The notes: a model not told the origin generated them from the sequence alone. A stretch of 61,908 bases of DNA from Candidatus Limnocylindria bacterium (GCA_046262115.1 JBHENJ010000029.1:1-61908); one strand, 5' to 3'; shown: positions 1 to 33,892, counted from the first letter of the stretch. Translations and numbers: made by a program.

Positions 1-323
1 GGCGTCTTGTTCTCCTCCGCAACCACCGCGGCGACCGCCGCTCGCGCAGGCTTCGGAATCCATCGGAGCCGCTCATGCCCACCCTTCACCCTCACGCGGC
101 AGCGACCGGTCGCGAAGTCGACGGCGTTGGCGCGTAGCCCAAGCACTTTTCGACGCAGTCCCGTGAACAGGATCACGAGCACGATCGCCGCGTCGGGGGC
201 AGGCGCGGTTCTCCCGCCACGCGGCGCGGCCGGGGAGGTCGCGGACCGCGTGGCAGTCGTTTCGCAGACTTCGAGCGCCCCGGCCCCGCGCGCTCGCCTC
301 CGGCGTCTCTGCGCGGAGGAACC
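1..323 (-). pseudogene. Tyrosine recombinase (phage-integrase family) catalytic-domain fragment, 5'-truncated, continues off the left edge
   Basis: My minus-strand translation reads APDAAIVLVILFTGLRRKVLGLRANAVDFATGRCRVRVKGGHERLRWIPKPARAAVAAVV, which contains the TGLR Arg box and the KGG..R hairpin. There is an in-frame TGA at 324-326 and no ATG/GTG before the conserved block. It is absent from the ORF track because it has no stop inside the window. Confidence 0.55.
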
Positions 324-348
324 TCACACTAACGGTTGTTAGTGTGAG
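323..348. promoter_or_regulatory. Perfect 11-bp inverted repeat CTCACACTAAC-ggtt-GTTAGTGTGAG (operator-like palindrome)
   Basis: Read directly from the sequence. It is an AT-rich palindrome in GC-rich surroundings, directly upstream of the integrase fragment. Confidence 0.4.
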
Positions 349-719
349 CTCCGGTGCGCCTTCATCGTGCGGCCCTGGCAGCACGCCGAGCTGCAGGGAT
401 GCCGACCGAGAGTAGGCCGAAGGTAGGTCAGTAGGTCGGCGGGAGCCGCCCTCCCCGGCAGCGATTCAGCTCGGTATCAGTGGCGTGGACGCGGGCGGTC
501 AGCCTGCGAAGGCGAGGCGGGGGCAGGTCCTCGCGGCGGCGGTTAATCCGACTGGTCAAGGTTCGCTTGGTCGAGCGGCACTCTATCCGCCGCGGGGGCT
601 GTTCGATGCCCATGGAACCCATCAATTCACGCATGGCGTGCATTGTCGGTCCGATCCGGGTCGGGTCGATGGTCATGGCCTGCAAGATCGGATTCTCGAC
701 GAGGGTTACGTGCATGTCG

Positions 720-1117
720 CCTTCATCAGGGTCGTGGAGCTCAACGTGCGACGCGAGGTCGCGGATCCGGACCGGGAATAGCGGTGGCGACAGATACTTT
801 GTCAGTCGGGCCCATCAGGTCCTGGGTCGTGCGGGCGGGCCCAGATATGGACCTCGCGGCCAGGTTCGAACAGCGGACGAAAGAAGCCGAGGCCCTGAAT
901 GTGGTCCATGTGCAGGTGCGTGAGCAGCAGATGCACCGGCCGACCGTCGCCCGCCATGGCTATTCCGGCCCGCCGAATCCCGGTCCCGGCATCGAGGACC
1001 AGAACCTCCCCGTTGTCCCCCTCGACCTGCACGCATGCAGTGTTGCCCCCATATCGGATCGTTTCGGGGGCCGGCGCTCGCGAGGGATCCGCGGGAGCCC
1101 CAGACCGTGATCTGCAT
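720..1117 (-). pseudogene. MBL-fold metallo-hydrolase (Lactamase_B_2 type), disrupted
   Basis: Starts MQITVWGSRGSLASAGP in frame A (ATG 1117-1115). Continues ETIRYGGNTACVQVEGDNGEVLVLDAGTGIRR...LLLTHLHMDHIQGLGFF...EVHIW in frame B. Returns to frame A as GPPARPRT*WARLTKYLSPPLFPVRIRDL. Indels sit at the G5 run 1066-1070 and the C run ~840-842, and there is an in-frame TGA at 815-817. Similarity fades below ~720. Confidence 0.6.
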
Positions 1118-1525
1118 CTAGAAGTGGGCCATGTGGCCCTGCCACATGACGACCATCGCGCCGAGGACATGCCCTCCCGCGCTCTCGATCGGGACCGCCG
1201 TCGCCTCGACCGGGCGCAGGACCCCATCGAGGCCATGTATGTAGAACTCGGCGTGGGCCGGTCGACGCTCGCGCATCGCCATCATTCCGGGCAGCAGGTC
1301 CACCGGGAGTGGCTCGCCGTTCTCGCGGCGGGGTGCCAACAAGTTGGCCCGCTCTTCGAAGGGCAAGGCGTCGATATCGTCGAAGTGGCGGCCGAAGATC
1401 GATTCGGCGGGCTCGTTATAGAAGAGGGTGTCGCCCCGTGCATCGACGACGAGCACCGGGACACTCAGCCCGCTGGCGAGCTGGCGCGCGAGGATGAGCT
1501 CCACGGCATACGCCATAGAGTTCAT
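1118..1525 (-). CDS. Small stand-alone PAS-domain sensor protein (135 aa)
   Basis: C-terminal part of ORF 1118..2395, from MNSMAYAVELILARQLASGLSVPVLVVDARGDTLFYNEPAESIFG...PVEATAVPIESAGGHVLGAMVVMWQ. The ATG at 1525-1523 is in frame. Its TAG stop abuts the MBL ATG (TAGATG). Confidence 0.6.
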   Translation of the reverse strand: MNSMAYAVELILARQLASGLSVPVLVVDARGDTLFYNEPAESIFGRHFDDIDALPFEERANLLAPRRENGEPLPVDLLPGMMAMRERRPAHAEFYIHGLDGVLRPVEATAVPIESAGGHVLGAMVVMWQGHMAHF

Positions 1526-1616
1526 TCTGGCCAGCGAGGGCAACGTCACTTGCGACGCGAGCGAGGCCGATGCCTCGTGGCGGACCTGTCGGATGCAGTC
1601 CTCCAGGCTTGTCCAG

Positions 1617-2216
1617 CTACCGTTCGCCGCCAGCCAGAACCTCCCGCACCGATCGACCATAGGGCCAGAAGTCGTCGCGCTGACCCGACTCCCAGTGCTC
1701 TCGCAGTCCCGGCGCGGCCAGATCCCAATCCGGTCGGATCTGGCGGGTAAGCTCTCGCAGATCACGCCGCAGATCCTCGTTCGAGGGGCGGCCCAGTACC
1801 AGTAGCCGTTGTAGATCGAGAAGATGCGCAGCCCGTGTCCCAGCACGAGAGTGTGCGGGATCATCGGGTCGTGCTGGGGATCGGTGTACTTAGCAATATC
1901 CAGATCCTTCTGGACGATCCGCCCGGAATCGGAGAGGAACGGCCAGCCGGCACCGAGCGCGTCGCGCATTTCGTTGGTCTCGAGCAGGTTGTCGTTCGAG
2001 ACCGTGACGATCTTCGTATAGGCCACGCGGATCTCTGGGTACAGATCCACGAGGTTGCGCAGCTGTCTGCGGTCCTTCGGGCAGAAGTGGCCGCGAGAGA
2101 GGACCAAGATCATGGGGTCGCTGCCCTGGAGCTCAGACAGTCGGCGACGCCGGCCGGTCTGATCGGGCAGTTTCGTAGTCGGGGAACGTCGCCCCCGGAA
2201 CGATGTCGCTTCGCAT
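1617..2216 (-). pseudogene. AhpC/TSA-redoxin (thioredoxin-fold) protein with two frameshifts
   Basis: Read in three frames: MRSDIVPGATFPDYE | LPDQTGRRRRLSELQGSDPMILVLSRGHFCPKDRRQ...IYNGYWYW | GRPSNEDLRRDLRELTRQIRPDWDL...PYGRSVREVLAGGER*. There is an extra A at the A-run near 2171-2173 and a missing G at the run near 1792-1794. Confidence 0.65.
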
Positions 2217-2351
2217 GGAATGCTCCTGACTTGGTGTCTTCGCGACGCATCCGACGAGCGGACTCGGCGCGTGCGGGAATCGTCGGCTGGCCCGGGCTCG
2301 TGAGGCTGTAATCCAGCAAACGCTGCCCCGGCGCGGATGATCACCCGTCGT

Positions 2352-2699
2352 TCAGCCGAGGATGCGAGGCAGGTTGCTCGCCAGATCCCAGGCACCGACG
2401 GCGATCAGGGCAACGCCGACAACGAGCTGAAGCGCGCGCTCATGCTTCACGACGGCGCGCACGACTTGCGCTCCTCGTCCGGTCCCGATCGTCCCCAGGA
2501 GGAAAAGCGGCAGCCCGAAGCCCACGCCGAATGCGCCGAAGAAGAGCAACCGCCCCAGCGCGTCACCGATGGTCAGGCTGAAGGTAAAAAAGCCGACCAG
2601 GAACGGCCCGCTGCACGGGATGGCCATCGGGGCGAAGAGCAGGCCGTAGCTGAACGCACCGATGATTGGTCCGCGCTGCCCGATCGGTCCGATGCCGAT
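2352..2699 (-). pseudogene. CcdA/DsbD-type cytochrome c biogenesis membrane protein, C-terminal ~115 aa only
   Basis: Tail of ORF 2352..2918: GPIIGAFSYGLLFAPMAIPCSGPFLVGFFTFSL...GLPLFLLGT...LVVGVALIAVGAW. The N-terminal half, which should carry the first Cys-containing TM segments, is missing. Confidence 0.55.
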
Positions 2700-2975
2700 G
2701 ACGCCGTCGACCGCCTTGCCTTCATCCGCTCGGCGCAGGCGGTCGGGCTGACCCTGGCTGAGGTGCGCCAGGTGCTCGGCGTCGGCGACGCCGGCGAGGC
2801 GCCCTGCCGGGTCGTCACGGACCTTATCGACCGGCGATACGCCCAGGTGCGCTCGCGGATTGCCGAACTGCGTGCTCTCGAGCGTGACCTTGCACGGCTG
2901 CGTGCTCGCGCGGCGCAACTGGAACCGCGCGACTGCGACCCGTCAGGGGTCTGCCACGTTATCCCGAGGCAGGGC
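2700..2975 (+). pseudogene. MerR-family regulator, dimerisation/effector half only (HTH missing)
   Basis: Within ORF 2337..3122: DRLAFIRSAQAVGLTLAEVRQVLG...APCRVVTDLIDRRYAQVRSRIAELRALERDLARLRA...DCDPSGVCHVI. No winged-HTH segment lies upstream. It abuts the truncated CcdA fragment head-to-head. Confidence 0.5.
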
Positions 2976-3161
2976 GTGGACGGACGCGGGCCCACCATAA
3001 GCGTGCGGCGCAACCCACCCCATAACGGACGCGCCCCGCGGTCCGGGGGGCGCGCCCGACTGACCCAAGGTCGCGGCCGTTGTCTCGCTCCCGCCGCGGC
3101 CTCCGCCCGTTCGGCCCCGTAACCGTGGCGGACAGCTCGCGAGTTGTGCCGGCTCCTTGGA

Positions 3162-3722
3162 CTAGCTTGTCTGGATGTACACGTTCATGCCGCTGACGAT
3201 CTTGTTGAAGTTCAAGACGCCATCGACAACGAGCGTCACGCCCTCGCCGGAAGGATCGTCATGCGTCGCCGGCGTCTGCGGCCCGATGATGCAGAAGGTG
3301 GTGAGGGTCCCTGGGAGTGCCAGGGTCGTCCCATCGGGGGTGAGAGTGACGGGCCAGTTTCAGCGCGCCGCCACAGAAGTCCGGCGGGAGTACGGTATCG
3401 GGATCGGTGAAGGTCAGAACGCCGCAGCCGTAGAACTCGAACGAGCGCAGCGCGGTCGCCGTCCACGTGCCGGTGGCCAACGTTGCCGTCGCTGTCGGAG
3501 TGGGGTGAACGTCCCCGACGCCGTCACCGATTTGGGATGGACCGCAAATACGCCGCCGCCAGTGATCGCTACCTGGTCGCCATTCGGAGCTTCGGCGACG
3601 TTGGGCACCTCGATCTCGAGCTCGAAGGAGGCCGACTGATTGTTGGGATCTGCCAACGCCAATCCCGGCGTGAGCGCGAGCAGGGCGGTGACAGCGAGGG
3701 TGAGGGGCAAGAGTCGTCGCAC
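3162..3722 (-). pseudogene. Secreted protein of unknown function, frameshifted paralog of 11694..12287
   Basis: Signal peptide MRRLLPLTLAVTALLALTPGLALA, then DQVAITGGGVFAVHPKSVTASGTFT | HSDSDGNV | ATGTWTATALRSFEFYGCGVLTFTDPDTVLPPDFCGGALKLA | VTLTPDGTTLALPGTLTTFCIIGP...NVYIQTS*. At least three indels sit at G/C runs near 3503, 3477 and 3352. Confidence 0.5.
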
Positions 3723-3898
3723 AGCATATCCTCCCGTTGCAGACGTCAGCCACAGTAGTGGCGGAGGGGCCGGCCTGATGACAGCGACCGCGGTCGGCTC
3801 GCGTCACGCGGGATCTACGAGATCGTGTCGCGCGCGAACGGCGTATCCGGCACTTAATCGCCCCCGACCGAGAGCGCGGCGCCGAAGAGCAAACGTTG

Positions 3899-4753
3899 TC
3901 AACCCTCGAGACCCGACGCCAGGAAGCTGCGCATGATCGCGTTGAACTCGACCGGCCGCTCCATGTTGCTGACATGACCGGCACCTTGGATCACGCTCAA
4001 ACCGGCCGCAGGAATCGACGCGTAGAGCGCGTGCGCGACGGCTATTGGTGATCGCGCATCCTGGTCGCCCCAGATCAGGAGCGTCGGAACGCGGATCGCG
4101 CCGAGCAGGTCACGCGTATCGGCGCGCGCGAGCGCGGTGGCCATCAGGCGAAAGCCGAGCGGATGGAAGTCGGCCATGATCGATGCCAGCTCATCTTTGA
4201 CGTCGGTCGCCACCGATGCGCTGAACATCCCGGGCAGGTAGCGGGGCACGAACTCCGCGGGCGGAAGCAGCGAATCGCGGAGGTAAGCGGCCAAGCGCTC
4301 CTCGGCCACTTCGGCCGAGAGCGACCCCTTCCAACCGGCGTACGTTTCGGCGAGCACCAGCGAGCGCACGCGCGCCGGGTATCCCTGGTAGAACGCCTGA
4401 GCCAGCAACCCTCCCCACGAAAGACCGACAATGAAGGCGGGGTCGACCTCGAGGGCATCCAAGAACACGGCCAGGTGGGCTGCCCAGTCCTCGATCCCGA
4501 AAGGGTCGGGCGGGTCGGATGAGCCACCGGCACCTGGAGCGTCCGAGGCCAAGACGGTGAACTCGTCGGCGAGGTCGACAAGCTGGTGCCCCCACGCGCG
4601 CGAATCGTGGATGAAGCCGTGCAGGAGCACTAGCGGAGGACCTGTTCCGCGACGCCGGTACGCGACCGAACGCCCGTCCAGCTCGAGACGCTCGAGCGGG
4701 GCGAGGTCTGTGCCGGTTTCGGTGGCCGGATCCAGCGGCGACCGATGGGTCAT
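3899..4753 (-). CDS. Alpha/beta hydrolase
   Basis: ORF 3899..5017 trimmed to MTHRSPLD (ATG 4753-4751). Motifs: PLVLLHGF, nucleophile elbow GLSWGG, C-terminal GAGHVSNMERP. Confidence 0.8.
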   Translation of the reverse strand: MTHRSPLDPATETGTDLAPLERLELDGRSVAYRRRGTGPPLVLLHGFIHDSRAWGHQLVDLADEFTVLASDAPGAGGSSDPPDPFGIEDWAAHLAVFLDALEVDPAFIVGLSWGGLLAQAFYQGYPARVRSLVLAETYAGWKGSLSAEVAEERLAAYLRDSLLPPAEFVPRYLPGMFSASVATDVKDELASIMADFHPLGFRLMATALARADTRDLLGAIRVPTLLIWGDQDARSPIAVAHALYASIPAAGLSVIQGAGHVSNMERPVEFNAIMRSFLASGLEG

Positions 4754-5252
4754 GGCGATGGCCGATTCACGTGAAGTCGCTGACATCGACGACAGCTGCG
4801 AGTAGGGAGAGGAAACAAGTCGAGGAGCGGTCGGCCTCCTAGCCGGGCGGGGCTTCGCCGGGTCATCCGTTCCACCTGAGCCTCGAGGCCTCCCGCCTCG
4901 CGGGCGAGCTCGGTGTAGATCCGGCCCCACCGGAAGACGTCGTCCTCGACGCCGAAGATGTTCACGCCCACAAACTCCATGACTGATCCGTCGACTCGCC
5001 TGCCGGACAGCCGCCACTCCATCCAGACCTCGTCCTCCCGCTCAACCAGCCGAACGATCGACGCGGTCACATGAGGGATTGATCCAAACAGGCGGGTGAA
5101 GTGGCGCGCACCTTGCTGCGACCTCGCACGACCTCGCCGCGACGGGCAGGCGCCTCGTCCTCGTACTCAAGCGCGAAGCAGTCGGCGCCGTCCGGCCCGT
5201 GCCGCGAGATCGCGGCGACGAACGCCTCAACCAACGAGTTGGGTCGAGCCAC
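4750..5252 (-). pseudogene. SnoaL-like / NTF2-fold protein with one frameshift
   Basis: VARPNSLVEAFVAAISRHGPDGADCFALEYEDEAPARRGEVVRGRSKVRA | HFTRLFGSIPHVTASIVRLVEREDEVWMEWRLSGRRVDGSVMEFVGVNIFGVEDDVFRWGRIY. A C is missing near 5103. Its stop overlaps the hydrolase ATG (ATGA). Confidence 0.55.
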
Positions 5253-5573
5253 GTGCTGACTGTGGGCGAGTCGAGACTCGACGTCAATGACCGCGCCAGA
5301 CGCTCCGTGCGAGCGTGCCGCATTCGGGGGCGGTCCGGTGGACCTGCGTGGCCGAGGCACGGATTCGGACCTCCAGTGACCCAGCGCCCCTGAAGGTCCG
5401 TAGCGTCGCGTGTTCATCCAGGCTCCGCGTGGGAAACTGCGGACATTTGGTCGCACGCGCGCGGCACGCGCGGCGCCGGGCCCCCCGGACGAGGAGTGCA
5501 CGACGTGCGGTTCTCCTCACCGCGAATCGGCCCGACGACACTCGTGCGTGGCGAAGGACGGATGACTCAGGCC

Positions 5574-5858
5574 TCAGGCGCGGTTCCATCCGCGTTCGCG
5601 CGTCAGGCCCGCCACGTCGGTCGGCATCCCAGTGTGGTGGAGGAACGCATCGAGCTGGTCGATCGCCTTGGCGTATGTCGTACGCGTCGATGGGCTGCGG
5701 TTCTCGGCGTGGAGGTGGCGCAGGAACGAGGCGCGCAGTGGAGCGATCTCGCCGCTCGCGGTATAATCGGCCCTCGGGACAGGGGACTGAGCCACCGCTC
5801 GCGCCTCGTGACGGACGTCAGACTTCGCAGTCATAGGCTCAACGAGCGCTGTGGTCAA
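5574..5858 (-). pseudogene. Tyrosine recombinase N-terminal (SAM-like core-binding) fragment
   Basis: ORF 5574..5858: LRASFLRHLHAENRSPSTRTTYAKAIDQLDAFLHHTGMPTDVAGLTRE. No catalytic domain follows in any frame that I translated. It lies 30 nt upstream of repeat copy 1. Confidence 0.5.
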
Positions 5859-5888
5859 TCCTCATCCGGGAGCCGAATCGAGGTATAT

Positions 5889-5961
5889 GCTCGATTTGAG
5901 CGAGAAACGGCTCCGAACGACCCGGCGGAGTAGCTCAGTGGTAGAGCAGGGGACTCATAAG
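5889..5961 (+). repeat. Copy 1 of [upstream flank + 5' half of tRNA(CAU)]
   Basis: 5924-5961 ggcggagtagctcagtggtagagcaggggactcataag matches 12678-12715 with one C>T difference. The flank tcgatttgagcgagaaacgg resembles tcgatctgagcacgaaaccg of copy 2. Confidence 0.8.
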
Positions 5962-6120
5962 TCTCTGAACGCAAGCGCTGTGCTACGAGCGTGGGAACGC
6001 GAGCGTAAGGGCCAAAGTTATCTACTGTAACTTCGGCCACCCTGAGCGCTGTGCTACCGGCTATTTCACGCTCGTTGCGCGGAGCGTGAACCAGTCGGTT
6101 ATCGACTGTAGGCCGTAACC
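5962..6120 (+). repeat. Conserved ~160-nt module, copy 1 (att-arm, structured RNA or small insertion element)
   Basis: The first 99 nt differ from 10613-10711 by 4 substitutions. Internally it is a tandem of two ~80-nt units, each AGCGCTGTGCTAC ... GAGCGTG-type motif ... GTTATCNACTGTA(A)C hairpin. There is an 11-bp hairpin GGCCAAAGTTA/TAACTTCGGCC at 6010-6038 and a 9-bp hairpin TTCACGCTC/GAGCGTGAA at 6065-6090. Confidence 0.7.
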
Positions 6121-6149
6121 CGATTCACGCTCGGATCGGGGCCTTTTCC

Positions 6150-6186
6150 TGTCCGCGGAATCCGCCAGTACCGTTCTGGCTCCGCA
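6150..6186 (+). pseudogene. Decayed tRNA 3' half downstream of module copy 1
   Basis: GAATCCGCC (6158-6166) and CTCCGCA (6180-6186) match the T-arm/acceptor segment GAATCCGCC-CTCCGCT of the intact tRNA. They are in the same order but separated by a 13-nt insert, and the T-loop is shortened. Confidence 0.4.
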
Positions 6187-6273
6187 CGGAGCTCGTCCAT
6201 CCGTCGCGCCGCTTCCTCCTGCATCGTCGGGCTGACGTGCGAAACCGCTTAAGGGAGGTGGGCCTCCGCGCCC

Positions 6274-6733
6274 TCAATTGCCGAACGGCTTCACCACCAT
6301 CAGGAAGACCAGGACGACTATTGCCACCAGGCTGAAGTACATCGAGAAACGCGGGAAACCTGATGGACAAGTGCGGTCAACTCGCCAGATGGAGCCTCCT
6401 CCGAACTTGCCGCAGCCGCCTCGGCAACCTTGGCTGGCCAGGCCCCAGCGATTCCGGTGACCACGAATGTCAGACCGAAAACGACGTACGCCAGGACCAA
6501 CCAGGGAGCCAGGAAGTTGAGCTGGCCCGTGGCTGCCGTGATTAGACCGAAGATCAGCCCGATCACGAACATCACCGGAATGGCGATGCCAATGGTTTGA
6601 CCAGCGCGAACGTGGTGCGAATCGCTCGCACATCACCTGAATTTGCCACTCGATGGAGCAGCAGCTCCGTCCCCACCGCCAATCCGACCGCGAGGAACAT
6701 CGAGACGATGTGGAGAAACTTGAAGATCAGCAT
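6274..6733 (-). pseudogene. Integral membrane protein (DUF2269-like), two frameshifts
   Basis: MLIFKFLHIVSMFLAVGLAVGTELLLHRVANSGDVRAIRTTFALVKP | IGIAIPVMFVIGLIFGLITAATGQLNFLAPWLVLAYVVFGLTFVVTG... | FPRFSMYFSLVAIVVLVFLMVVKPFGN*. A GGAGG sits before the ATG at 6733. The shifts are near 6592 and 6350. Confidence 0.5.
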
Positions 6734-7112
6734 TGGGCACACCTCCATCCGCAGTGCCGGCTGGATCGACCCGGCCGCTCACTGCCGACGGCAGAGGACC
6801 GCTGCGTTGTCAGGAACGGAAGGATCGCTGGGAGGCGGGTCACGATTATCGGACCCTATTGCGCCTGGACTACCCTACGTCGGCGTCATCTCATCGGACC
6901 ATGCGGGTGCCTGATGCGGTCTGGCGTGATCGCGGAGAAACCGCTCGAGCGCGCCCCCATCGCGGCGGGCGCCGCGCTCACACCGCAAGCCGCGAGTCCC
7001 CGACACGCTCATCGAATCCGTCCTCCACTCCGCCCCAAACGCTGGACGGCGCCAGCGCACCGAACTAGCCTCGTTCACACCAAAGTTCCGGAAGGAAACT
7101 GCCGCGGTTGCT

Positions 7113-7511
7113 ATCGGAGTCTTTGAGGAGACCGTTCTGGGCGGACTCCGAGACGCGCTCAAGGGTCAGGTGATCGCGCCTGGGGACGCGGACTACGACA
7201 CCGCGCGCAGGATCCACAACGGCATGATCGACAAGCGGCCGGGGCTGATCGTCCGCTGCACCGGTGTCGCCGACGTCATGTCCGCGCTGGCGTTCGGACT
7301 CGAGCACGACCTGCCGATCGCCGTGCGCGCCGGAGGCCACAACGTCGCGGGAAAGGCCGTGATCGACGCCGGCCTCGTGATCGACCTCTCCGGGATGAAG
7401 GGAATGCGGGTTGACCCGGTCAACCGCATCGCGCATGCCCAAGCGGGCCTCACCTGGGGAGAGTTCGACCGCGAGACGCAGGCGTTCGGGCCGGCGACGT
7501 CTCAGACCTAG
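7113..7511 (+). pseudogene. FAD-binding (FAD_binding_4 / BBE-like) oxidoreductase, N-terminal ~130 aa only
   Basis: GQVIAPGDADYDTARRIHNGMIDKRPGLIVRCTGVADVMSALAFGLEHDLPIAVRAGGHNVAGKAVIDAGLVIDLSGMKGMRVDP...AGLTWGEFDRETQAFG, then a stop. The expected ~330 further residues are absent and there is no canonical start. Confidence 0.65.
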
Positions 7512-7641
7512 GCCTTGAAGCAGAGCAATTTGGTGCGCGCTTCGAGTCGATCGTCATGGCGATCCCAGGTCTTCGGCGCTGTGGCAGGCGGGAGCGACGA
7601 GATTCGCAGCCGAGACGGCCGATTCTGAAGGGAAATGGGGC

Positions 7642-7669
7642 TGGAGCCGACATTCGGCTTCGAACCGAG
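7642..7669 (-). pseudogene. tRNA 3'-end-like scrap (T-arm + acceptor strand + CCA)
   Basis: The minus strand reads CTCGG-TTCGAAG-CCGAA-TGTCGGC-T-CCA. No convincing anticodon arm or 5' half could be folded. Confidence 0.3.
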
Positions 7670-7670
7670 G

Positions 7671-7745
7671 ATCTACTGTTTACAAGCAGATCGGCCTGAG
7701 CGCTGCGGCACGAGCGTGGATGCTCGAGCGTTACGCTGTCCAGCT
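7671..7745 (+). repeat. Partial third copy of the module family
   Basis: ATCTACTGT...TCGGCC-TGAGCGCTGCGGCACGAGCGTGGATGCTCGAGCGTTACG parallels ATCTACTGTAACTTCGGCCACCCTGAGCGCTGTGCTAC...GAGCGTGG of copy 1. Confidence 0.5.
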
Positions 7746-7876
7746 AGCGGGTCTTCGTTTCGGGCCTGCTTCACCTCGATGGGGCGCGCCTCATGGGCAG
7801 TGGCGCAGCTGGACCGGTGGGCCTGTCACATGGCCCCGGCTCGCCGGAAGGGCGCTAGCTTGGCGTGAGGGTGTAT

Positions 7877-8188
7877 CTACTCTCGCTCGTCGATGACCAC
7901 TTCGTACCGCTCGACGCCGGTGACACTCCCGCCTACGGCGTGAGCTGCATCCCCTCGGGCTCGGTCGGCCTGCTTCTCACTTGCCCGCATCTCGTCCTCC
8001 GTTTCCCAGAAGCTCATGCTAAGCGACTTTCCAGAGCCGCGGTCGACGAGAACCAGGGCGCCATGGTCTTTGATGCCTGATTCCTTCATCTGCCGCCGAA
8101 CCGCCGGAAGGACGTTGTCCCGCCAGTTGCTGATCGTTGCATCGATCTGCTCTGGCGATCCGGTGTAGTAGCTCACCCTGGCGTACAT
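7877..8188 (-). CDS. Small ABM/Dabb-fold protein of unknown function
   Basis: ORF 7877..8269 trimmed to MYARVSYYTGSPEQIDATISNWRDNVLPAVRR...ALVLVDRGSGKSLSMSFWETEDEMRASE...VERYEVV. Confidence 0.5.
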   Translation of the reverse strand: MYARVSYYTGSPEQIDATISNWRDNVLPAVRRQMKESGIKDHGALVLVDRGSGKSLSMSFWETEDEMRASEKQADRARGDAAHAVGGSVTGVERYEVVIDERE

Positions 8189-8696
8189 CGCTCGCTCCTC
8201 GTGCCCGAGTTCCAACCAGTGATTTTCAAGCAGACGGAAGACGCTGCTCAGCCCAAGCCCATTGAACATCTATCAAGAGCGCCAGGCAACAGTAATCGCC
8301 ATCCGATCGGCTGGCAGCGAGCCTCCGGCCAGCGTCACGATCCGAGAGTACGGAGCGGCTCGCGTCGCCGGCCTACGATTCTGCCCATGAGGCTGCGCGA
8401 ACGGCTTGAGATTCGCGCGGGATGCAGGTCTATCCCTCCCGCCGGCGATGAGCGCCGTCGTGATGACCTACCAGACGGTGGTCATTTTTTGGAACGCACC
8501 GATGGGTCACGCCATCGCGGCAGGGCCGCTCGGCTTGCGCTGACCGATTCCGGGATCCGCTTAGCGTGGTGCAAGCCCTCTCGCTGCGCGATGAGGTGAG
8601 CCCGACCCAGCACCTCGTGCGGCGAGTCCATTGGTCGAAACGTCTAAGCAGAAGGCGCTGGTGTTCGGCCTCAGCCAGGTGGAGGTAGGGGATCCA

Positions 8697-9311
8697 TCAG
8701 CCACCCGCTCGAGCAGGAGCCTCGGTCGCTTCCACCGCGTTCGGTGCGTCCGACCCAAGCCCCTTGTCCGCGACGTCCTCCCAGAAGTCCACCGCCGCTC
8801 GCTCGTAGAGCAGGCCCATGGGCAGGGTCACCCCGCGCCAGTGCTCGACCGTCCGCTGCCCACGGCCGGAGACTTCGGGCCGTCGCTCGAGGCGCGCATC
8901 TTCCTCGTAGGCCAACAGCTTGGCCCGATGGATGGCGAGTTGCTGCTCTGCCAGGCGGAGGCGCGCCGCGGGCGGTGCCAGATCGGCGAAGAAGAGCTGC
9001 AGGAGCCCCAGGTCGCGTAGTTGGGTGGGCTCAGCGTGTGGCCGGTCGAGCCAGGCCGCCAGGGCGTGGCGCCCGGCCTCAGTGATCGTGAACACACGGC
9101 GACGTCGACCGTCCCGGTCGCGGGTTTCGGTGACCAGCCCCAGGCCGGCCAGCCGCGCCGGCTCGCTGTACAGGAGCGTGTGCGGGAAGGACCAGAAGTT
9201 GCCGAGCGTGGCGGCGACGTGGCGCTCAAGCTCGTACGGCGTCGACGGCCCCTCGCGCCCGAGCAAGCCCAGGACCAGGTATGAAGTGGCGCTCAGTCGT
9301 GCGCTTGACAT
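8697..9311 (-). CDS. PadR-family transcriptional regulator
   Basis: ORF 8697..9968 trimmed to MSSARLSATSYLVLGLLGREGPSTPYELERHVAATLGNFWSFPHTLLYSEPARLAGLGLV. The upstream extension is antisense to the neighbouring gene. Confidence 0.8.
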   Translation of the reverse strand: MSSARLSATSYLVLGLLGREGPSTPYELERHVAATLGNFWSFPHTLLYSEPARLAGLGLVTETRDRDGRRRRVFTITEAGRHALAAWLDRPHAEPTQLRDLGLLQLFFADLAPPAARLRLAEQQLAIHRAKLLAYEEDARLERRPEVSGRGQRTVEHWRGVTLPMGLLYERAAVDFWEDVADKGLGSDAPNAVEATEAPARAGG

Positions 9312-9461
9312 GATGCGCAGCGTACCATACACTCTGAACGGTCGGCGCCCGCCACAACCCCGGGCTAGTTTGCCGGGGGTTACACACCAGTCGGGCGACC
9401 AAGGCGTCGCCAGCTGGACCCCCGTCACGGCAGCGCCGACGGCAGCGAAAGGTGATCTCAT

Positions 9462-9911
9462 ATGGGCACTGACATGAAGATGATGGCGCGTCGCTTCTCC
9501 GACGAGCTCTGGGCGCAGGGCGGCCAGGCCGTCGTCGACGACTTGTTCACCAACGACTTCCGGAACCACAGCCCTGGTCAGGAGGCGTTCGGGATCAGCC
9601 CGGACAAGGAAGGCTACAAGAAGCTCATTGGGATGTTTGTGACCGCCTTCCCAGATCTGAGCACCAGGACGGAGGATGTCATCACGGAAGGCGACAAGGT
9701 CGTCTTGCGTTGGACTGGAAGCGGGACGCATCAGGCGGACTTCGCCGGCATCCCCGCCAGCGGGAAGCGGATCACGCTCGGCGGCACGACCATCCTTCGG
9801 ATCGCCGACGGCAAGATCACCGAAGAGTGGTCGTATGGCGACCAGCTCGGTCTGATGGTCCAGCTCGGTGCGGTCCAGCTGCCAGCCCAGCCGGTCGGCG
9901 CCTATCGCTAG
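9462..9911 (+). CDS. SnoaL-like ester cyclase family protein
   Basis: ORF 9462..9911: LFTNDFRNHSP...YKKLIGMFVTAFPDLSTRTEDVITEGDKVVLRWTGSGTHQADFAGIPASGKRITLGGTTILRIADGKITEEW. Divergent from padR. Confidence 0.75.
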   Translation: MGTDMKMMARRFSDELWAQGGQAVVDDLFTNDFRNHSPGQEAFGISPDKEGYKKLIGMFVTAFPDLSTRTEDVITEGDKVVLRWTGSGTHQADFAGIPASGKRITLGGTTILRIADGKITEEWSYGDQLGLMVQLGAVQLPAQPVGAYR

Positions 9912-10352
9912 GAGCCAATCCGCCCGGGACCCTCTGAACGAGCACAGCCAAGCCGTAAGCGGCATCATCGATCGGTGGGTTCCGGGCTAACGGGTCCCGG
10001 AATTGTCGCTCGGGATTCTTGACGCTGCTGTCATGGTGGGCGCAAGTCCGGGGCGGCGTCTTGATATCTCGCTTTGCCGGCTGCGGTCTGGCAGGGTGCG
10101 AGCGAGGCCAAGGGGGCGCGCATTCAACAGATGCCAGACGCGTCTAGTGACGCGCCAGGTCCCAGCCCCAGATCCTGCGCTCTGGCTCGGGCGATCACCC
10201 GCACCGGCGCGGAAACCAACTCTTGCACCCGCACAACCACCGGGGTCCCGCTGACGTCCTGAAATGCATGGACCTCCAGCGATCCAACCTGCTATGGCTC
10301 CGGGCCGAGAGCAGTTGAGGCAGCTCTGCGCAAAAGTTGCAGGAGGTTCGTC

Positions 10353-10478
10353 GTGAGCAGATTTGCAGCCTGTGTAGCGATCATTGCCTCAGTCCTGGTC
10401 GCCAGTCGGACACTCGGAGCGGTCGGTGGCGACGGCACCATTCGGCCTCTCCGTTCTCGCGACTTATCTGCTGCATGA
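10353..10478 (+). CDS. Candidate 41-aa small ORF with a hydrophobic signal-like N-terminus
   Basis: AGGAGG at 10341-10346, 6 nt before the GTG at 10353. Translation: MSRFAACVAIIASVLVASRTLGAVGGDGTIRPLRSRDLSAA*. Too short for the ORF track. Confidence 0.3.
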   Translation: MSRFAACVAIIASVLVASRTLGAVGGDGTIRPLRSRDLSAA

Positions 10479-10548
10479 GCGTTGTCCCGACGAAGTTGCC
10501 GGAGTTTTCGACTGTAGGTATCCTCGAAGGGTGTTCATTCGATAGGCC

Positions 10549-10612
10549 CCTTGTCGATCTGAGCACGAAACCGATGGCGGAGTAGCTCAGTGGCAGAGCA
10601 GGGGACTCAAAG
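10549..10612 (+). repeat. Copy 2 of [upstream flank + 5' half of tRNA(CAU)], anticodon destroyed
   Basis: CCTTGTCGATCTGAGCACGA at 10549-10568 is identical to 12651-12670. 10576-10612 equals the tRNA 5' half apart from a 1-nt deletion (CTCA-AAG instead of CTCATAAG). Confidence 0.8.
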
Positions 10613-10772
10613 TCTCTGAACGCAAGCGCTGTGCTACGAGCGTGGGAACGCGAGCGTAACTGCCAAAGTTATCGACTGTAACTTCGGCCACCTTGAGCGC
10701 TGTGCTACCGGTCAGTTCACGCTGGGTACGGGCGAGCGTCGAGTGTTCAGTTATCGGCTGAAGGCCGTAACC
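10613..10772 (+). repeat. Conserved ~160-nt module, copy 2
   Basis: Collinear with 5962-6120. The 5' 99 nt are near-identical. The 3' part has diverged but keeps TTCACGCT...AGCGT and GTTATCGGCTGAAGGCCGTAAC. The module ends ...CCGTAA, followed by CCCTT, which is the tRNA anticodon-stem 3' strand. Confidence 0.7.
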
Positions 10773-10975
10773 CTTCTACCGTCTACCCGTCAGCCGCATG
10801 CGGGTTGCGGCCGCGGGGCCGGTGGCGGTGACAGAGGGCAACATCTTGACCAACCGTCTGCACGGGAGTACACCAAACCCCTACGCGTGACGCGAGCCGG
10901 CCGCGTCACTGCCCAAGGCCGGCCCCTCCGCCACGATCCAGGCCAGTGCCCGTGCTGGATAGAGGAGGTGTGCGC

Positions 10976-11497
10976 ATGGTGAAACCGCGTCCGGGCCGTC
11001 TGGCCCTCGCCGTCCCGTTGGCGCTTGCAGCGATGCTGGTACTGGCGGCGATGCCTGTCGTCGCTGCTCCAGCCCCGGCCGTCCGGGGCGGGGGTGTCGT
11101 CGACGGGCCGTTGGGTGTCACGTCGCAGCTCGGGTTTAGCGCATCGAGCACGGGAGGCAGCTTCCTTTGCGTCATGGCCGGCCGATCGGGTGGCTTCCCA
11201 TTCGGCGACTGGGACAAGATCCTACAGATGCAGGTGCAGGGTCGGGTCACGCCTGGCACGCTCGAGATCGACGGCTCCTGGTCGCGCTTCGAGGGAATCG
11301 CCAAGATCCATGTGGTTGGCGTCGCGGGTGGAGAGGTGGTCACCGCGAGAATGCACGACATCCGCTTCATATCCACTCAGGGAGCCGGTGGTGCTGGCGT
11401 GGCCTGGCACATCCTCGAAATTCCGGATCTCGGCCTCAGCTTTGGGGCGCCCGATGGCGCACTCATGAAGTCCGGGAAAATCACGATTTGGGAGTAG
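10976..11497 (+). CDS. Secreted protein of unknown function
   Basis: ORF 10946..11497 trimmed to MVKPRPGRLALAVPLALAAMLVLAAMPVVAAPAPA (signal peptide). GGAGG lies 8 nt upstream of the ATG at 10976. Confidence 0.6.
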   Translation: MVKPRPGRLALAVPLALAAMLVLAAMPVVAAPAPAVRGGGVVDGPLGVTSQLGFSASSTGGSFLCVMAGRSGGFPFGDWDKILQMQVQGRVTPGTLEIDGSWSRFEGIAKIHVVGVAGGEVVTARMHDIRFISTQGAGGAGVAWHILEIPDLGLSFGAPDGALMKSGKITIWE

Positions 11498-11693
11498 GGA
11501 GCATCCGGCTCCACTTGGAGGGACCGCCACATGGTCTCGAGACGATGAAGACCGGCCGTACCACGATGTGGCCCAGCGGACAGATTCGTATCCGACCCTA
11601 ACGTCACGCGAGATCACCCAGAGCGCTTGGGCACGTGAAGCGAGCCCGGCGAATTGGGCCACCATAGCTAAGCGATCAAGGAAGGAAGAACCG

Positions 11694-12287
11694 ATGAAAC
11701 GGAAGCGAGGCGCATTCCCGGCAGTCCTAAGCACGCTGATCGCGCTGGTCATTTCGGGGCTAGCGGTCGGCGTCGTCGGCGGCGCCGACAACCACCTGAT
11801 GCGTTGGGACATCGTCAGCATCGACTTCGCCGCGGGCACGATCGATGAAGGCGGGATGGCATCGGCGGTCGCCGCCGACGGATCGATGATCACCCTGACA
11901 GGCTCCGGCACGTTCCGCGCGAACCCTGGGACCCCGCAGGCGGTGACCGGCGGGGGAACGTGGTCAACCTCTGGACCCGCGGGTACCGGAGGCGGCACAT
12001 ATTGGGTGACCGGCTTCGTGGACTGGCACCTGGCACCCGGAGTCGCTCCGCCGTTGACGAACCTCTTCGCCGATTCCGCCGATGCACGGGCGGGCCTTCT
12101 GGTCCTGCGCATCGCATACTCGGACGGGAGCGACGGCGTGCTCGTCGTCAGCTGCCACCTGGTGGAGACACCGGACTCCGTCTTCGAGGGGATCACCGCC
12201 TCGAAGGGCTTCGTGGACTACTTCAACGCGGTCCCGCCAGCACCCGGCGTGGATGCGAACCGGACGCTGTTCCTGGTGGTCAAGTAG
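11694..12287 (+). CDS. Secreted or membrane-anchored protein of unknown function (paralog of pseudogene 3162..3722)
   Basis: ORF 11568..12287 trimmed to MKRKRGAFPAVLSTLIALVISGLAVGVVGG. A GGAAGGAAG Shine-Dalgarno sequence precedes it. It shares the ITLTGSGTF...VTGGGTW pattern with 3162..3722. Confidence 0.6.
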   Translation: MKRKRGAFPAVLSTLIALVISGLAVGVVGGADNHLMRWDIVSIDFAAGTIDEGGMASAVAADGSMITLTGSGTFRANPGTPQAVTGGGTWSTSGPAGTGGGTYWVTGFVDWHLAPGVAPPLTNLFADSADARAGLLVLRIAYSDGSDGVLVVSCHLVETPDSVFEGITASKGFVDYFNAVPPAPGVDANRTLFLVVK

Positions 12288-12677
12288 TCGGGTCTCCTAC
12301 GCGGCGGGGCCGGCCAGCGCCGGCGCCGCCGCACTCTGGGCTGACGGGATCAGGATACACGTTCGCCGCCTGCCTCCCAGGGGACCGCGCGATCAGCACG
12401 CCTTTCGTGACCGTCCGGCAGATCCGCGACAGGGAAGATACGGCAGAGCGGAACCAGAACGACCAATGTTGGACCCCTCTTGGCCAATTCGAACGCTGTG
12501 CTCGGGCCACGCACGCTCGATTTGTGATCAAGACATGCCACTTCATAGTTTCCTAGTCGATTAACCGTTTGACCCTCACACGATCGCATCGGTATCCTTC
12601 TGGTCGATGAGCGTTGTGGTACGTAGTTCGCGCTCATCGCTGCTCAGTTTCCTTGTCGATCTGAGCACGATTCGTGT

Positions 12678-12752
12678 GGCGGAGTAGCTCAGTGGCAGAG
12701 CAGGGGACTCATAAGCCCTTGGTCGGTGGTTCGAATCCGCCCTCCGCTACCA
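12678..12752 (+). tRNA. tRNA with CAU anticodon (elongator Met or lysidine-dependent Ile2), CCA encoded
   Basis: GGCGGAG-TA-GCTC-AGTGGCA-GAGC-A-GGGGA-CTCATAA-GCCCT-TGGTC-GGTGG-TTCGAAT-CCGCC-CTCCGCT-A-CCA. The cloverleaf folds with G1.U72 and G27.U43 wobbles and an A31.G39 mismatch. C11:G24 argues against an initiator tRNA. Confidence 0.9.
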
Positions 12753-12754
12753 AT

Positions 12755-13723
12755 CCCTCCCTTCTCGAGCTCGCGCGCGCACTCGCCGAAGGCGCCGATG
12801 CGGGTCGCCTCATCCCGGACCGATCCGACGTCGTCCTCGCGGTGTCCGGCGGCCCGGACTCCATGGCGCTGCTCGAGGGAGCAGCCCGCCTCGCGCGCGA
12901 TCGAGAGTGGTGCCTGGTGGTCGCTCATCTCGACCACCGGCTGAGGCCTGGCTCCGGCGCGGACGCGGAATTCGTTCGCGCGACGGCGGAGGCGCGGGGA
13001 CTGCGCTTCGAGGGAACGGCCGCGGATGTCGCCGCGCTGGCGAGGACGGCGCGGCGGTCAATCGAGGAGGCGGGACGCGACGCGCGCTACGCGTTCCTCG
13101 AGGGCGTGGCCAGCACGATTGGTCCCCACGCGCTGATCGCGACCGCCCACACCGCAGACGACAGTGCCGAGACGATCCTGCTGAACATCGCGCGGGGCAC
13201 GGGAGTCTCGGGTCTTTCCGGGATCCCCGTTCGGCGCGGTCGCATCGTCAGGCCACTGCTCGGCGCCCGTCGCGCGACGCTGCGCGGCTGGCTGGTCGAC
13301 GCCGGGATCGCTTTCCGGACCGACGAGACCAACCTCGACATGCGTTATGCCCGGGCGCGGGTCCGGCACGAGGTGGTTCCAGCGCTCGAGCGGCTGAACC
13401 CCGGCGTCGTCGAGGCGCTCCTGCGCCTGGGCCGGCTGGCAGCGGACGACGACCGGCTGCTCGACGACCTCGCCTCGACTGAGCTTGCGCGCCGGCGTCT
13501 CGAGGAGGGCGACGGCGGCGCACGCATCGACTGGCACGAGCCGCTCCCACGAGCCCTCGGCCGCAGGGTGCTTCGCCTCGCGCTGGGCGTGCGGCCGCCG
13601 ATGGAGCGTATCGACGCGATCCTCAACGCCGCGGAGGGCGTGCGCGGCGGCGTTTCGATCGAGGTCGGCTCCGGAACGACGGCATCGGTGAGCGGACGGG
13701 TCATCACCATCGACGGCAACTGA
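12755..13723 (+). CDS. tilS: tRNA(Ile)-lysidine synthase; start codon unresolved
   Basis: ORF 12674..13723: VVLAVSGGPDSMALL PP-loop, HLDHRLRP, TAHTADD. No in-frame ATG/GTG/TTG occurs between the tRNA end (12752) and the GTG at 12842. The only upstream start (GTG 12674) reads through the whole tRNA. Confidence 0.8.
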   Translation, partial: PSLLELARALAEGADAGRLIPDRSDVVLAVSGGPDSMALLEGAARLARDREWCLVVAHLDHRLRPGSGADAEFVRATAEARGLRFEGTAADVAALARTARRSIEEAGRDARYAFLEGVASTIGPHALIATAHTADDSAETILLNIARGTGVSGLSGIPVRRGRIVRPLLGARRATLRGWLVDAGIAFRTDETNLDMRYARARVRHEVVPALERLNPGVVEALLRLGRLAADDDRLLDDLASTELARRRLEEGDGGARIDWHEPLPRALGRRVLRLALGVRPPMERIDAILNAAEGVRGGVSIEVGSGTTASVSGRVITIDGN

Positions 13724-13823: not shown

Positions 13824-15803
<1,980 letters not shown>

Positions 15804-32879: not shown

Positions 32880-33892
32880 TGCGGGAGACGTCGCCGAGCG
32901 TGCCTGATGCGAGCGCGCTGGGGGCCGACGCCGCGCTCGAACGCTTCATCGGGCACCTCGAGGCGCGCAACGCGTCGCCCGGCACCGTCCGCGAGTACAC
33001 GCGGGCGAACCGCGAGTTCCTTGACTTCGTCGCCGCACGGGGCGGGCAGTGGGCAGCTCCCGGGCGCGCCACGGTCCGCGCGTACCTCGCCCACCTGGCG
33101 GATCGCGGGCTGGCGTCGGCGAGCGTCGCCGGTCGGATCGCCGCGATCCGGGCGATGTACCGCGACGCGCGGCAGCATGGACACGTGGCCGACGATCCGC
33201 TGGCGGGAGTCAGGACGCCGCGCCGGCCGTCACGCCTGCCCCGCGTGCTCGGCACGCAACAGGCCGCCGAGCTGGTGGAGGCGCCGGGCGTAGGCGCCGG
33301 ACGGGATCGCGATCGCGATGAGACGCTCGCCGCTCGCGACAGCGCGATCCTGGAGATGCTCTACGCGACCGGGATGCGCATTTCGGAGTTAACCGGCTTG
33401 ACGCTCGATCGCATCGACCTCACGAGGCGCCGCGTCCGCGTGCTGGGCAAGGGTCGCAAGGAGCGCGACCTGCTCTTTGGAAAGCCCGCGGCGCGCGCGC
33501 TGCATGCGTACGTCCGGCTTGCGCGACCCGCGCTGCGAGCGCGCGCCACGCGATCTCGCGGCAGCGCGGCGACGACGCGCGACAGCGGGCACCTGTTCCT
33601 CAACGCGCGGGGTGGAGCGCTCGGTGTGCGCGGCGCGCGCTCCGTGGTCGAGCGCTGGGCCGCCGCGGCCGGCAGTCCGGAAGCGACCTCGCCGCACGTG
33701 CTGCGGCACTCCTTCGCGACCCACCTGCTCGAAGGAGGAGCCGATCTGCGGACCGTCCAGGAGCTGCTCGGCCACCGGAATCTCCAGACGACACAGATCT
33801 ACACGCACCTGTCGGACGCCGCGTTGGTCTCGGCCTATCGGGGCGCCCACCCACGGGCGACGACGGCCGGGCGCGCGCGCGCCGATGGCTGA
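32879..33892 (+). CDS. xerC: Site-specific tyrosine recombinase XerC/XerD
   Basis: Tail of ORF 32555..33892 from the GTG at 32879: LEARNASPGTVREYT, YATGMRISEL, HVLRHSFATHLL, LLGHRNLQTTQIYTH. Confidence 0.85.
   Translation: MRETSPSVPDASALGADAALERFIGHLEARNASPGTVREYTRANREFLDFVAARGGQWAAPGRATVRAYLAHLADRGLASASVAGRIAAIRAMYRDARQHGHVADDPLAGVRTPRRPSRLPRVLGTQQAAELVEAPGVGAGRDRDRDETLAARDSAILEMLYATGMRISELTGLTLDRIDLTRRRVRVLGKGRKERDLLFGKPAARALHAYVRLARPALRARATRSRGSAATTRDSGHLFLNARGGALGVRGARSVVERWAAAAGSPEATSPHVLRHSFATHLLEGGADLRTVQELLGHRNLQTTQIYTHLSDAALVSAYRGAHPRATTAGRARADG

Follow-up and report, generated by a model that had tools for sequence, protein, structure and literature searches.

The 61,908-nt sequence analysed here (GCA_046262115.1, JBHENJ010000029.1:1–61908; the whole stretch is called the window below), from a Candidatus Limnocylindria bacterium, contains a single tRNA gene, a tRNA(CAU) identified by both ARAGORN and Rfam, which directly abuts the gene for tRNA-Ile lysidine synthetase (tilS). 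Two orphan copies of the 5′ half of this tRNA lie upstream of it in the same orientation, the first of them next to a truncated integrase gene. The features of the region are, from left to right:

5574–5795, minus strand (open reading frame running from 5795 to 5574): truncated N-terminal fragment of a Xer-like tyrosine integrase (weak match to Pfam Phage_int_SAM_4, E = 0.0028)
5796–5923, plus strand: type A flank, which is the arm on the integrase side and reaches from the integrase start to the tRNA 5′ end, holding ATAGGCTCAACGAGCGCTGTGGTCAA and a GGTATATG box
5924–5961, plus strand: copy 1, an orphan 5′ half of tRNA(CAU), 38 nt, canonical tRNA positions 1–39 (pattern search, alignment)
5962–6125, plus strand: far-side arm 1, DNA of the element that adjoins the orphan half, with two AGCGCTGTGCTAC and two GTTATCKACTGTA boxes
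6126–10469, no strand assigned: body of inner segment Y, without integrase, GC content 62–66% compared with about 70% for the rest of the window
10470–10575, plus strand: type B flank before copy 2, with the 20-nt block CCTTGTCGATCTGAGCACGA at 10549–10568
10576–10612, plus strand: copy 2, an orphan 5′ half of tRNA(CAU), 37 nt (pattern search, alignment)
10613–10775, plus strand: far-side arm 2, homologous to arm 1 (alignment)
10776–12537, no strand assigned: body of inner segment Z, without integrase, two open reading frames
12538–12677, plus strand: type C flank before the intact tRNA, with two AGTTTCCTNGTCGA boxes and one GAGCGTTGTGG box
12678–12752, plus strand: intact tRNA(CAU) with encoded CCA (ARAGORN; Rfam, 63.1 bits)
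12719–13723, plus strand: tilS, on the chromosomal side, with a candidate TTG start at 12719 inside the tRNA (Pfam PP-loop; TIGR02432, 160.8 bits against a cut-off of 93.6)

A 34-nt pattern from the tRNA 5′ half has three matches in the window, at 5924 (one mismatch), 10576 (none) and 12678 (none), and no match of any kind in 100 dinucleotide-preserving shuffles (0/100). Copy 1 differs from the intact tRNA by one substitution, a C to T in the D loop that is also found in the intact tRNA of three related loci (L056, L062 and L006), and is otherwise identical through CATAAG; in copy 2 the T of the CAT anticodon is deleted (CTCA-AAG). Both copies score below the Rfam tRNA threshold of 29 bits (26.2 and 23.6 bits, respectively), and in a three-way alignment the column at which homology to the tRNA is lost is the same for both, one base beyond the anticodon loop. 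A 20-nt block, CCTTGTCGATCTGAGCACGA, is exactly the same at 10549 and 12651 and is recognizable ahead of copy 1, and the 61-nt block 10549–10609 has 92% identity to 12651–12711 and 66% identity to 5897–5957. Gene prediction, pattern searches, shuffles and alignment thus bear out the preliminary description of the region, which had listed one intact tRNA(CAU), two orphan copies of its 38-nt 5′ half (at 5924 with one substitution, at 10576 with a 1-nt deletion), a shared 20-nt upstream flank and a common end of homology just past CATAAG. The orphans at 5924–5961 and 10576–10612 are both upstream of, and co-oriented with, the intact gene, as is characteristic of 5′-fragment islands.

The minus-strand reading frame left of copy 1 has about 70–80 residues homologous to integrases and then continues with unrelated residues up to a stop; on its upstream side it stays open as far as 5836/5858, and the gene may begin at 5836. 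Its homologues are metagenomic integrase N-termini (P0002–P0008, 60–82% identical), and a tblastn comparison with the intact integrase of locus L006 gives 53% identity over 45 residues (27–71); the integrase N-terminal fragment already reported in front of copy 1 is confirmed. All eight matches to the stub are short, because they derive from small contigs or have decayed independently. The same shortness led to integrase splitting of the SSV type being considered; this was rejected, since the attachment site lies outside the reading frame, 66–128 nt upstream of the integrase start, and the integrated L006, L072 and L073 elements have intact integrases. The stub starts 128 nt from the tRNA half, compared with 66–123 nt in intact relatives.

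In the L006 locus, from a Limnocylindria metagenome-assembled genome (MAG), the tyrosine integrase is intact (316 aa); next to it come a 122-nt flank similar to type C, the tRNA and tilS. A metagenome scan with this integrase yielded 80 loci, and a neighbour-joining tree was built from 79 homologues. In all close relatives (52–96% identity) with enough upstream sequence, a tRNA gene lies on the opposite strand with its 5′ end 66–123 nt from the integrase start. This reversed orientation is found in all clade members with enough upstream sequence (14/14), which form one clade in the tree, and the targets are Met-CAU, Val-UAC, His-GUG, Lys-CUU, Gly-CCC and Pro-UGG. In a sister clade (41–47% identity) the tRNA, wherever it is seen, has its 3′ end towards the integrase, which is the usual orientation.

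Two complete elements of the reversed type were found. One of 4.2 kb (L072) comprises a tRNA-Met, 118 nt, a 310-aa integrase and an orphan of tRNA nt 1–40, and the other, of 7.35 kb (L073), comprises a tRNA-Gly(CCC), an integrase and an orphan of nt 1–37. In both, the integrase, flank and regenerated tRNA are at one end and the orphan 5′ fragment is at the other. These intact relatives carry the 5′ half of the tRNA (Met in L072, Gly in L073), the point that the preliminary description had proposed to check. A member of the sister clade (L082) has a 45-nt repeat of tRNA-Val nt 29–73 at a distance of 6.4 kb, in the usual orientation. In both clades the whole anticodon loop is part of the repeat, but opposite halves of the gene are carried; this is consistent with strand exchange in the loop and a tRNA that stands inverted with respect to the element.

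The integrases of the reversed clade are Xer-like proteins of about 310 aa with a SAM-like core-binding domain and a catalytic domain. The best structural matches of the L006 integrase are 5hxy (XerA; E = 1.8 × 10−20) and 1a0p (XerD), with 5vfz (Brujita gp33; E = 1.8 × 10−6) a more distant one. It does not qualify as an XerC or XerD resolvase, scoring below both NCBIfam equivalog cut-offs (159 bits against 335 for XerC and 146 bits against 330 for XerD). Viral contigs gave a single distant integrase match that was not informative.

Beyond their common break copies 1 and 2 continue to share about 165 nt, which the preliminary description does not mention. The segments 5959–6079 and 10610–10730 have 92% identity, and a second block (6082–6121 and 10734–10773) has 78%; the two arms are 92–96% identical, with 96% over 102 nt. 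Each arm has an internal twofold structure of AGCGCTGTGCTAC and GTTATCKACTGTA boxes, and the boxes are strongly enriched around the three sites (7 against 0.76 expected and 4 against 0.05 expected). At an independent orphan (L060) an integrase N-terminus is followed by a short flank, a 5′ half ending CATAAGCC and then an arm with a AGCGCTGTGG box and a GTTATGCGCTGAA box. The five arms compared (copies 1 and 2 of the window, L072, L060 and L073) align in register from the junction, with an invariant CGCTGT about 15 nt and AGTTAT..CT..A about 55 nt past it. Since L073 targets a different tRNA, the arm boxes belong to the element family and not to the tRNA-Met locus, and the homology of arms across elements means that the DNA past the orphans of the window represents genuine far-side attachment-site arms of this integrase family. 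The blocks of identity stop at tRNA nt 37–41 in the window, L060, L072 and L073, which bounds the crossover without mapping its position.

A break in or next to the anticodon loop is also the site of tRNA introns and of split-tRNA junctions, and the orphans could in principle come from a local duplication of the tRNA 5′ part, from split-tRNA genes or from an anticodon-loop intron. Such a non-integrative origin is exceedingly unlikely. A 27-nt pattern for the 3′ half, with up to three mismatches allowed, finds the intact gene alone in the window; Rfam, with E values up to 5, finds only the tRNA and no intron or other RNA family; the anticodon of copy 2 is damaged; the DNA past the break is homologous to arms of integrase-bearing elements; and the flanks differ among the three copies. 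It is very unlikely, too, that the contig is a chimera joined by the assembler through short repeats, with no single genome having the three copies. The contig is of metagenome type, and the closest TilS proteins in a species-representative genome set, from Chloroflexota MAGs labelled Ca. Limnocylindria or Chloroflexia, are just 61–63% identical. However, the copies have diverged, the longest exact matches (50 nt between arms 1 and 2, 35 nt between copy 2 and the tRNA, 19 nt between copy 1 and the tRNA) are short for assembler joins, and assemblies made independently from other samples (L060, L072 and L073) also contain orphan 5′ halves with this arm layout.

A tRNA(CAU) directly precedes tilS at ten loci (the window, L001, L002, L005–L009, L062 and L066), and since this adjacency is kept in most relatives it is taken to be ancestral. 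The flanks found before the tRNA differ. In L056–L059 the same integrase stub and a type A flank, 90% identical to that of the window over 79 nt, are fused to an intact tRNA; further matches to this flank are found in L061, in L062 and on the integrase side of the complete element L072. The type C flank resembles the 122-nt spacer between integrase and tRNA in L006 and L064–L066. Flanks that adjoin an intact integrase in relatives are therefore of type C (L006, L064–L066) and type A (L072).

Locus L062 (GCA_033612695.1) consists of an integrase stub, a type A flank, an intact tRNA and tilS. It aligns at 81% to window positions 5611–5961 and then at 73% to 12676–12936, the two parts being joined through a single tRNA. 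L062 is thus collinear with the window minus 5962–12675 and represents an unoccupied site for the inner block, which answers the search for empty sites suggested at the outset; it is a distant relative, with an integrase fragment 81% identical at the protein level and a strongly different tilS, and still has the type A remnant at its left.

The region is probably a decayed tandem array of small integrative elements that used the tRNA(CAU) beside tilS in reversed orientation. The attachment site of such an element, read in the orientation of the tRNA, would consist of the integrase gene pointing away, a flank of about 70–130 nt, tRNA nt 1–39 and, on the far side, an arm in which two boxes are conserved. 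Strand exchange by a Xer-like tyrosine integrase would take place within the anticodon loop. The chromosomal 5′ half and its flank would thereby be stranded at the far end, joined to the element arm, and the element flank and 5′ half would be fused to the chromosomal 3′ half, regenerating the tRNA beside tilS. After integration one would read, from left to right, the old flank with its 5′ half, the arm, the body of the element and its integrase, then the new flank with the new 5′ half, and finally the chromosomal 3′ half and tilS. Because the element carries the 5′ half of the tRNA, its flank has to bring a promoter, and the flanks would supply the one predicted for the regenerated gene: the promoter scan finds a promoter-like TTGACC-18-TATCCT at 12569–12598 in the type C flank, and the type B flank has a promoter-like TTGCCG-17-TATCCT at 10496–10524 (by eye, 8/12, below the scan threshold).

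Read in this way, the oldest visible element, X, would be represented by the integrase stub, the type A flank and the 5′ half left as copy 1. Segment Y (5962–10612) would comprise arm 1, cargo, the type B flank and copy 2, and segment Z (10613–12715) would comprise arm 2, cargo, the type C flank and a 5′ half that is now part of the live tRNA. We infer that the first 38 nt of the intact tRNA come from the last element and that the remainder is chromosomal; the exact crossover position and the order and number of integrations are deduced in the same way. Since Y and Z have no integrase and X keeps only about 70–80 homologous residues of one, the array is unable to move by itself, and with no cognate integrase in the window it is presumably fixed. 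Its segments are remnants and not functional members.

It is possible, though not probable, that Y and Z were already a tandem in a donor, left it together by excision through the outer sites and then inserted, as a single 6.75-kb circle, into the tRNA with the type A flank, by the same mechanism. L062 differs from the window by the whole block 5962–12675, and no intermediate was found. Neither inner segment has an integrase, so that each on its own would need one supplied in trans or lost later. Flanks B and C differ, but arms 1 and 2 have 96% identity over 102 nt. On the other side, both histories end in identical sequence, and since L062 is distant the missing intermediates mean little. The preliminary description had attributed the footprint to successive integrations of elements that carry a 5′ half with its flank and recombine in the anticodon loop. 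The elements and their mode of integration are supported by L072, L073, the orientation of the clade, the arms and L062, but their succession cannot be separated from a single tandem integration. Its related prediction, that integrase, flank and 5′ half would be found at each right end, holds for copy 1 and, in relatives, for flank types C and A, but fails for the inner segments, which have no integrase; for type B no example beside an integrase was found.

Several observations weigh against the interpretation of the region as a decayed array. Some of them concern the type B flank. Among the loci compared, none has this flank beside an integrase. It is found ahead of the intact tRNA in L009, directly after a long (665-codon) chromosomal-looking open reading frame, and ahead of the orphan half in L072, which is the place expected of a native flank; its promoter-like motif is conserved as TTGCCG-17-TATYCT. 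Type B may therefore be the native tRNA leader rather than an element arm, in which case Y must have come in a composite or foreign segment. No integrase signal was found in 5962–12650 by Pfam or by tblastn with the stub, P0005, E. coli XerD and the L006 integrase, so that Y and Z would be recognized as former elements solely by their attachment-site arms and flanks. A tblastn search with 12 window proteins gave no match to the Y and Z cargo outside the window among the fetched loci. The left end of X is outside the window. Finally, domain and structure searches revealed no arm-binding domain in the L006-type integrase; integrases lacking this domain would not use lambda-style arm sites, and the arm boxes are therefore not of that kind.

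The properties of type B could also mean that copy 2 and its flank are the native leader of this or a donor lineage, that the copy 1 region is the unrecombined attachment site (attP) of a decayed type A element, and that only Z arrived by simple integration, the rest having been brought together by recombination or rearrangement. The order integrase, flank, 5′ half, arm at copy 1 is that of an attP, and the box layout of arm 1 is that of the arm of the type A element L072. This explanation is nevertheless unlikely. Integration adds DNA only to the right of a 5′ half, so that a native flank should stay leftmost and not be found in the middle; L062 and L056 have the type A flank fused to a live tRNA beside tilS, which makes it the older state of the site; and an unintegrated attP 4.6 kb upstream of its own target would be a coincidence. 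If the region is a decayed array, a type B flank in mid-array either marks an element arm, with recurrent loss of the adjoining integrase, or means that Y came in a composite.

The tilS frame is open through the whole tRNA gene at all ten abutting loci (10/10), and the TilS SGGxDS motif is in a constant frame (frame 2 relative to tRNA nt 1) at a distance of 162, 168 or 210 nt. In most of the ten loci the stretch from the 3′ end of the tRNA to this motif is devoid of in-frame ATG, GTG and TTG codons. The conserved in-frame start candidates are found inside the tRNA only: a GTG at nt 15 and a TTG at nt 42–44 (12719 in the window), the latter with the GGGGA of the anticodon stem as a putative ribosome-binding site 10 nt upstream. 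Where a classical insert separates the two genes (L003, L056), an orphan 3′ tRNA fragment remains joined to tilS in frame and a new start is present upstream. On sequence evidence, this suggests that translation of tilS starts inside the gene of its probable substrate tRNA; a limited literature search found no description of a tilS start within a tRNA gene. With regard to the identity of the tRNA (Ile2, Met or initiator), a search of annotated E. coli genomes returned tRNA-Phe genes only and was uninformative; the four matches listed were chromosomal, and most matches overall were on plasmids.

A further step, which is rather improbable, is that tRNA(CAU) and tilS form one overlapping unit, so that reversed elements swap the promoter and leader of both genes and the host comes to depend on the flank of the element. 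If this were true, reversed elements alone, among those that target tRNA genes, would keep the 3′ half of the tRNA joined to tilS. The persistence of flanks and 5′ halves beside decaying integrases would then be accounted for, as would the several unrelated flank types found ahead of the same tRNA in relatives. Folding of the tRNA, its processing or the binding of TilS could then control tilS translation.

Use of the 5′ side of tRNA genes is rare. The Islander collection has 3760 islands with a 3′ fragment and 159 (4%) with a 5′ fragment, in agreement with the expectation at the outset that targeting of the 5′ half is far rarer; it includes 125 tandems of two or more islands and four of three or more, and its search excludes Xer-type integrases by design (PMC4383910). 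The window shares with the 5′-fragment islands of that collection the carriage of the 5′ part, the upstream and co-oriented orphan, the tyrosine integrase, a crossover sublocation (here a predicted one) centred on the anticodon and the occurrence of tandem arrays (PMC4383910). It differs in its host, which belongs to an uncultivated Chloroflexota class, in its Xer-like integrase and in an array without integrase except for one stub; where Islander requires a tyrosine integrase for each array member, the window has only the stub left of copy 1. Reversed tRNA use is thus rare but established, and what is new here is the lineage and the Xer-like integrase clade.

Classical anticodon-loop islands that carry the 3′ half (L082; Islander attP class 'A') have the same anticodon stem-loop core, an integrase of the same superfamily (the sister clade, 41–47%) and an attachment site about 100 nt upstream of the integrase start. 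Here the tRNA is inverted relative to the integrase, the repeat is nt 1–39 with orphans upstream, whereas that of L082 is nt 29–73 with the orphan downstream, and the reversed element must also bring a promoter. The integrase of mycobacteriophage Brujita (gp33; 5vfz) and archaeal XerA (5hxy) have the same two-domain layout without an arm-binding domain. The Brujita integrase uses minimal attachment sites, whereas the conserved repeated boxes at fixed distances from the junction in the present arms suggest more complex ones. CIME-type elements, such as those accompanying ICESt1 of Streptococcus thermophilus, are integrase-less remnants between attachment sites that undergo 'accretion' with integrative elements. 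As in these, cargo without recombination genes is found here between attachment-site repeats stacked at a tRNA-type hotspot, and mobilization in trans by a related integrase may by analogy be possible in principle; unlike in these, the repeats are 5′ tRNA halves and no cognate integrase is seen in the window. A 2019 review-type analysis describes 5′-distal recombination as 'considerably less frequent', citing Zhao & Williams (2002) and, for archaea, Krupovic & Bamford (2008b), Gaudin (2014) and Cossu (2017), and describes CalSub-E1 (PMC6563490). The archaeal elements likewise use the 5′ side of the tRNA gene, but they have archaeal hosts and other integrase families, and integrases of the SSV type, which integration splits, are inapplicable here.

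The present case documents this rare, backwards use of tRNA sites in an uncultivated soil and freshwater Chloroflexota lineage. The reversed orientation is a heritable trait of a whole Xer-like integrase clade that uses at least six tRNA species. Its sister clade has the anticodon-loop core in common with it but the normal orientation, making the pair a natural system in which to study what sets target orientation in simple tyrosine integrases. Because at least one standard island finder, Islander, filters out Xer-like integrases, elements of this type may be under-counted. Since such elements replace the upstream region of the tRNA, its promoter, which here is probably also the promoter of the essential tilS, would be turned over.

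The cargo of the inner segments is as follows:

6318–6575, minus strand, segment Y: membrane-protein fragment (Pfam)
7170–7511, plus strand, segment Y: N-terminal fragment of an FAD oxidase, 113 codons (Pfam)
7877–8269, minus strand, segment Y: 130-aa open reading frame
about 8697–9383, minus strand, segment Y: PadR regulator (Pfam)
9462–9911, plus strand, segment Y: SnoaL-like protein (Pfam)
10946–11497 and 11568–12287, plus strand, segment Z: open reading frames with signal-peptide-like N-termini (read from the translations) and no Pfam family

A tblastx comparison with 143 fetched loci, made for shared island cargo, gave only high-GC noise. A 36-nt motif at 7699–7734, just past the FAD-oxidase gene cut to 113 codons (7170–7511), has 75–78% identity to the start of arms 1 and 2 and adjoins a weak tRNA-like stretch on the minus strand. 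The stretch itself (7632–7721) was rejected as a tRNA remnant, having no Rfam support, an aberrant anticodon and an ARAGORN match at a relaxed threshold only. Y itself could be a composite in which a junction has been lost.

The average GC content of the window is 69%, with 62–68% for positions 1–13000 compared with about 70% for the rest; because of this difference the window probably begins inside island DNA, and, since the contig that carries P0001 has the length of the window, the assembly may have broken at another repeat. Accessory-type genes in 1–13000 include those for an AhpC-PAS protein, a MerR regulator, an alpha/beta hydrolase and a SnoaL-like protein. A 659-aa open reading frame (13824–15803) that follows tilS is taken to be ftsH. 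The only complete tyrosine recombinase of the window is encoded by an XerD-like gene at 32930–33859 (37% identity to E. coli XerD and 33% to the L006 integrase), which is presumably a chromosomal dimer resolvase outside the island. In the complete element L073, positions 5363–11516 include an HUH-type Rep weakly similar to RepSA of pSAM2, and the defence-type cargo consists of Vsr, a C5 cytosine methylase, a GIY-YIG protein, a GmrSD-like protein and a protein with a RelA/SpoT domain.

Other changes were noted at the tRNA–tilS junction of relatives. Here tRNA(CAU) is used in the classical way. In L003 a 21-nt repeat of the tRNA 3′ end (3382–3402) bounds an insert of 3.3 kb that separates the tRNA from tilS. 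In L056 (about 1440–1470) an insert of about 0.7 kb has left behind a degenerate piece of the tRNA 3′ part, joined to tilS in frame, with a new start codon upstream, and L011 has a gap of about 0.8 kb (9229 to 10001) with new upstream starts and no 3′ fragment detected. A TAGAAT found 10–20 nt before the tRNA corresponds to the antisense of the integrase codons ...DSSA... (L060, about 340–370; L005, 9835–9860; L002, 9880–9905), so that the short leaders of L005 and L002, although they look native, may themselves be descended from remnants of an integrase N-terminus.

The integrase remnants of relatives also have features in common. Pseudogenes from different samples stop at the same conserved Trp codon (FFR-W-LAEEGEI), by TGA in L056 (2716–2721) and by TAG in L060 (about 626–631); past the stop in L056 the integrase frame goes on and is followed by an inverted piece of the catalytic domain. 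In three independent remnants (L061, L062 and P0008) the homology ends at nearly the same place (residues ~84–86), after ...ERGM(RP), and this common breakpoint could be a place within the integrase gene where deletions or insertions recur. The DNA that replaces the integrase in L061 contains ACCGACTGTAGTG, which is arm-box-like.

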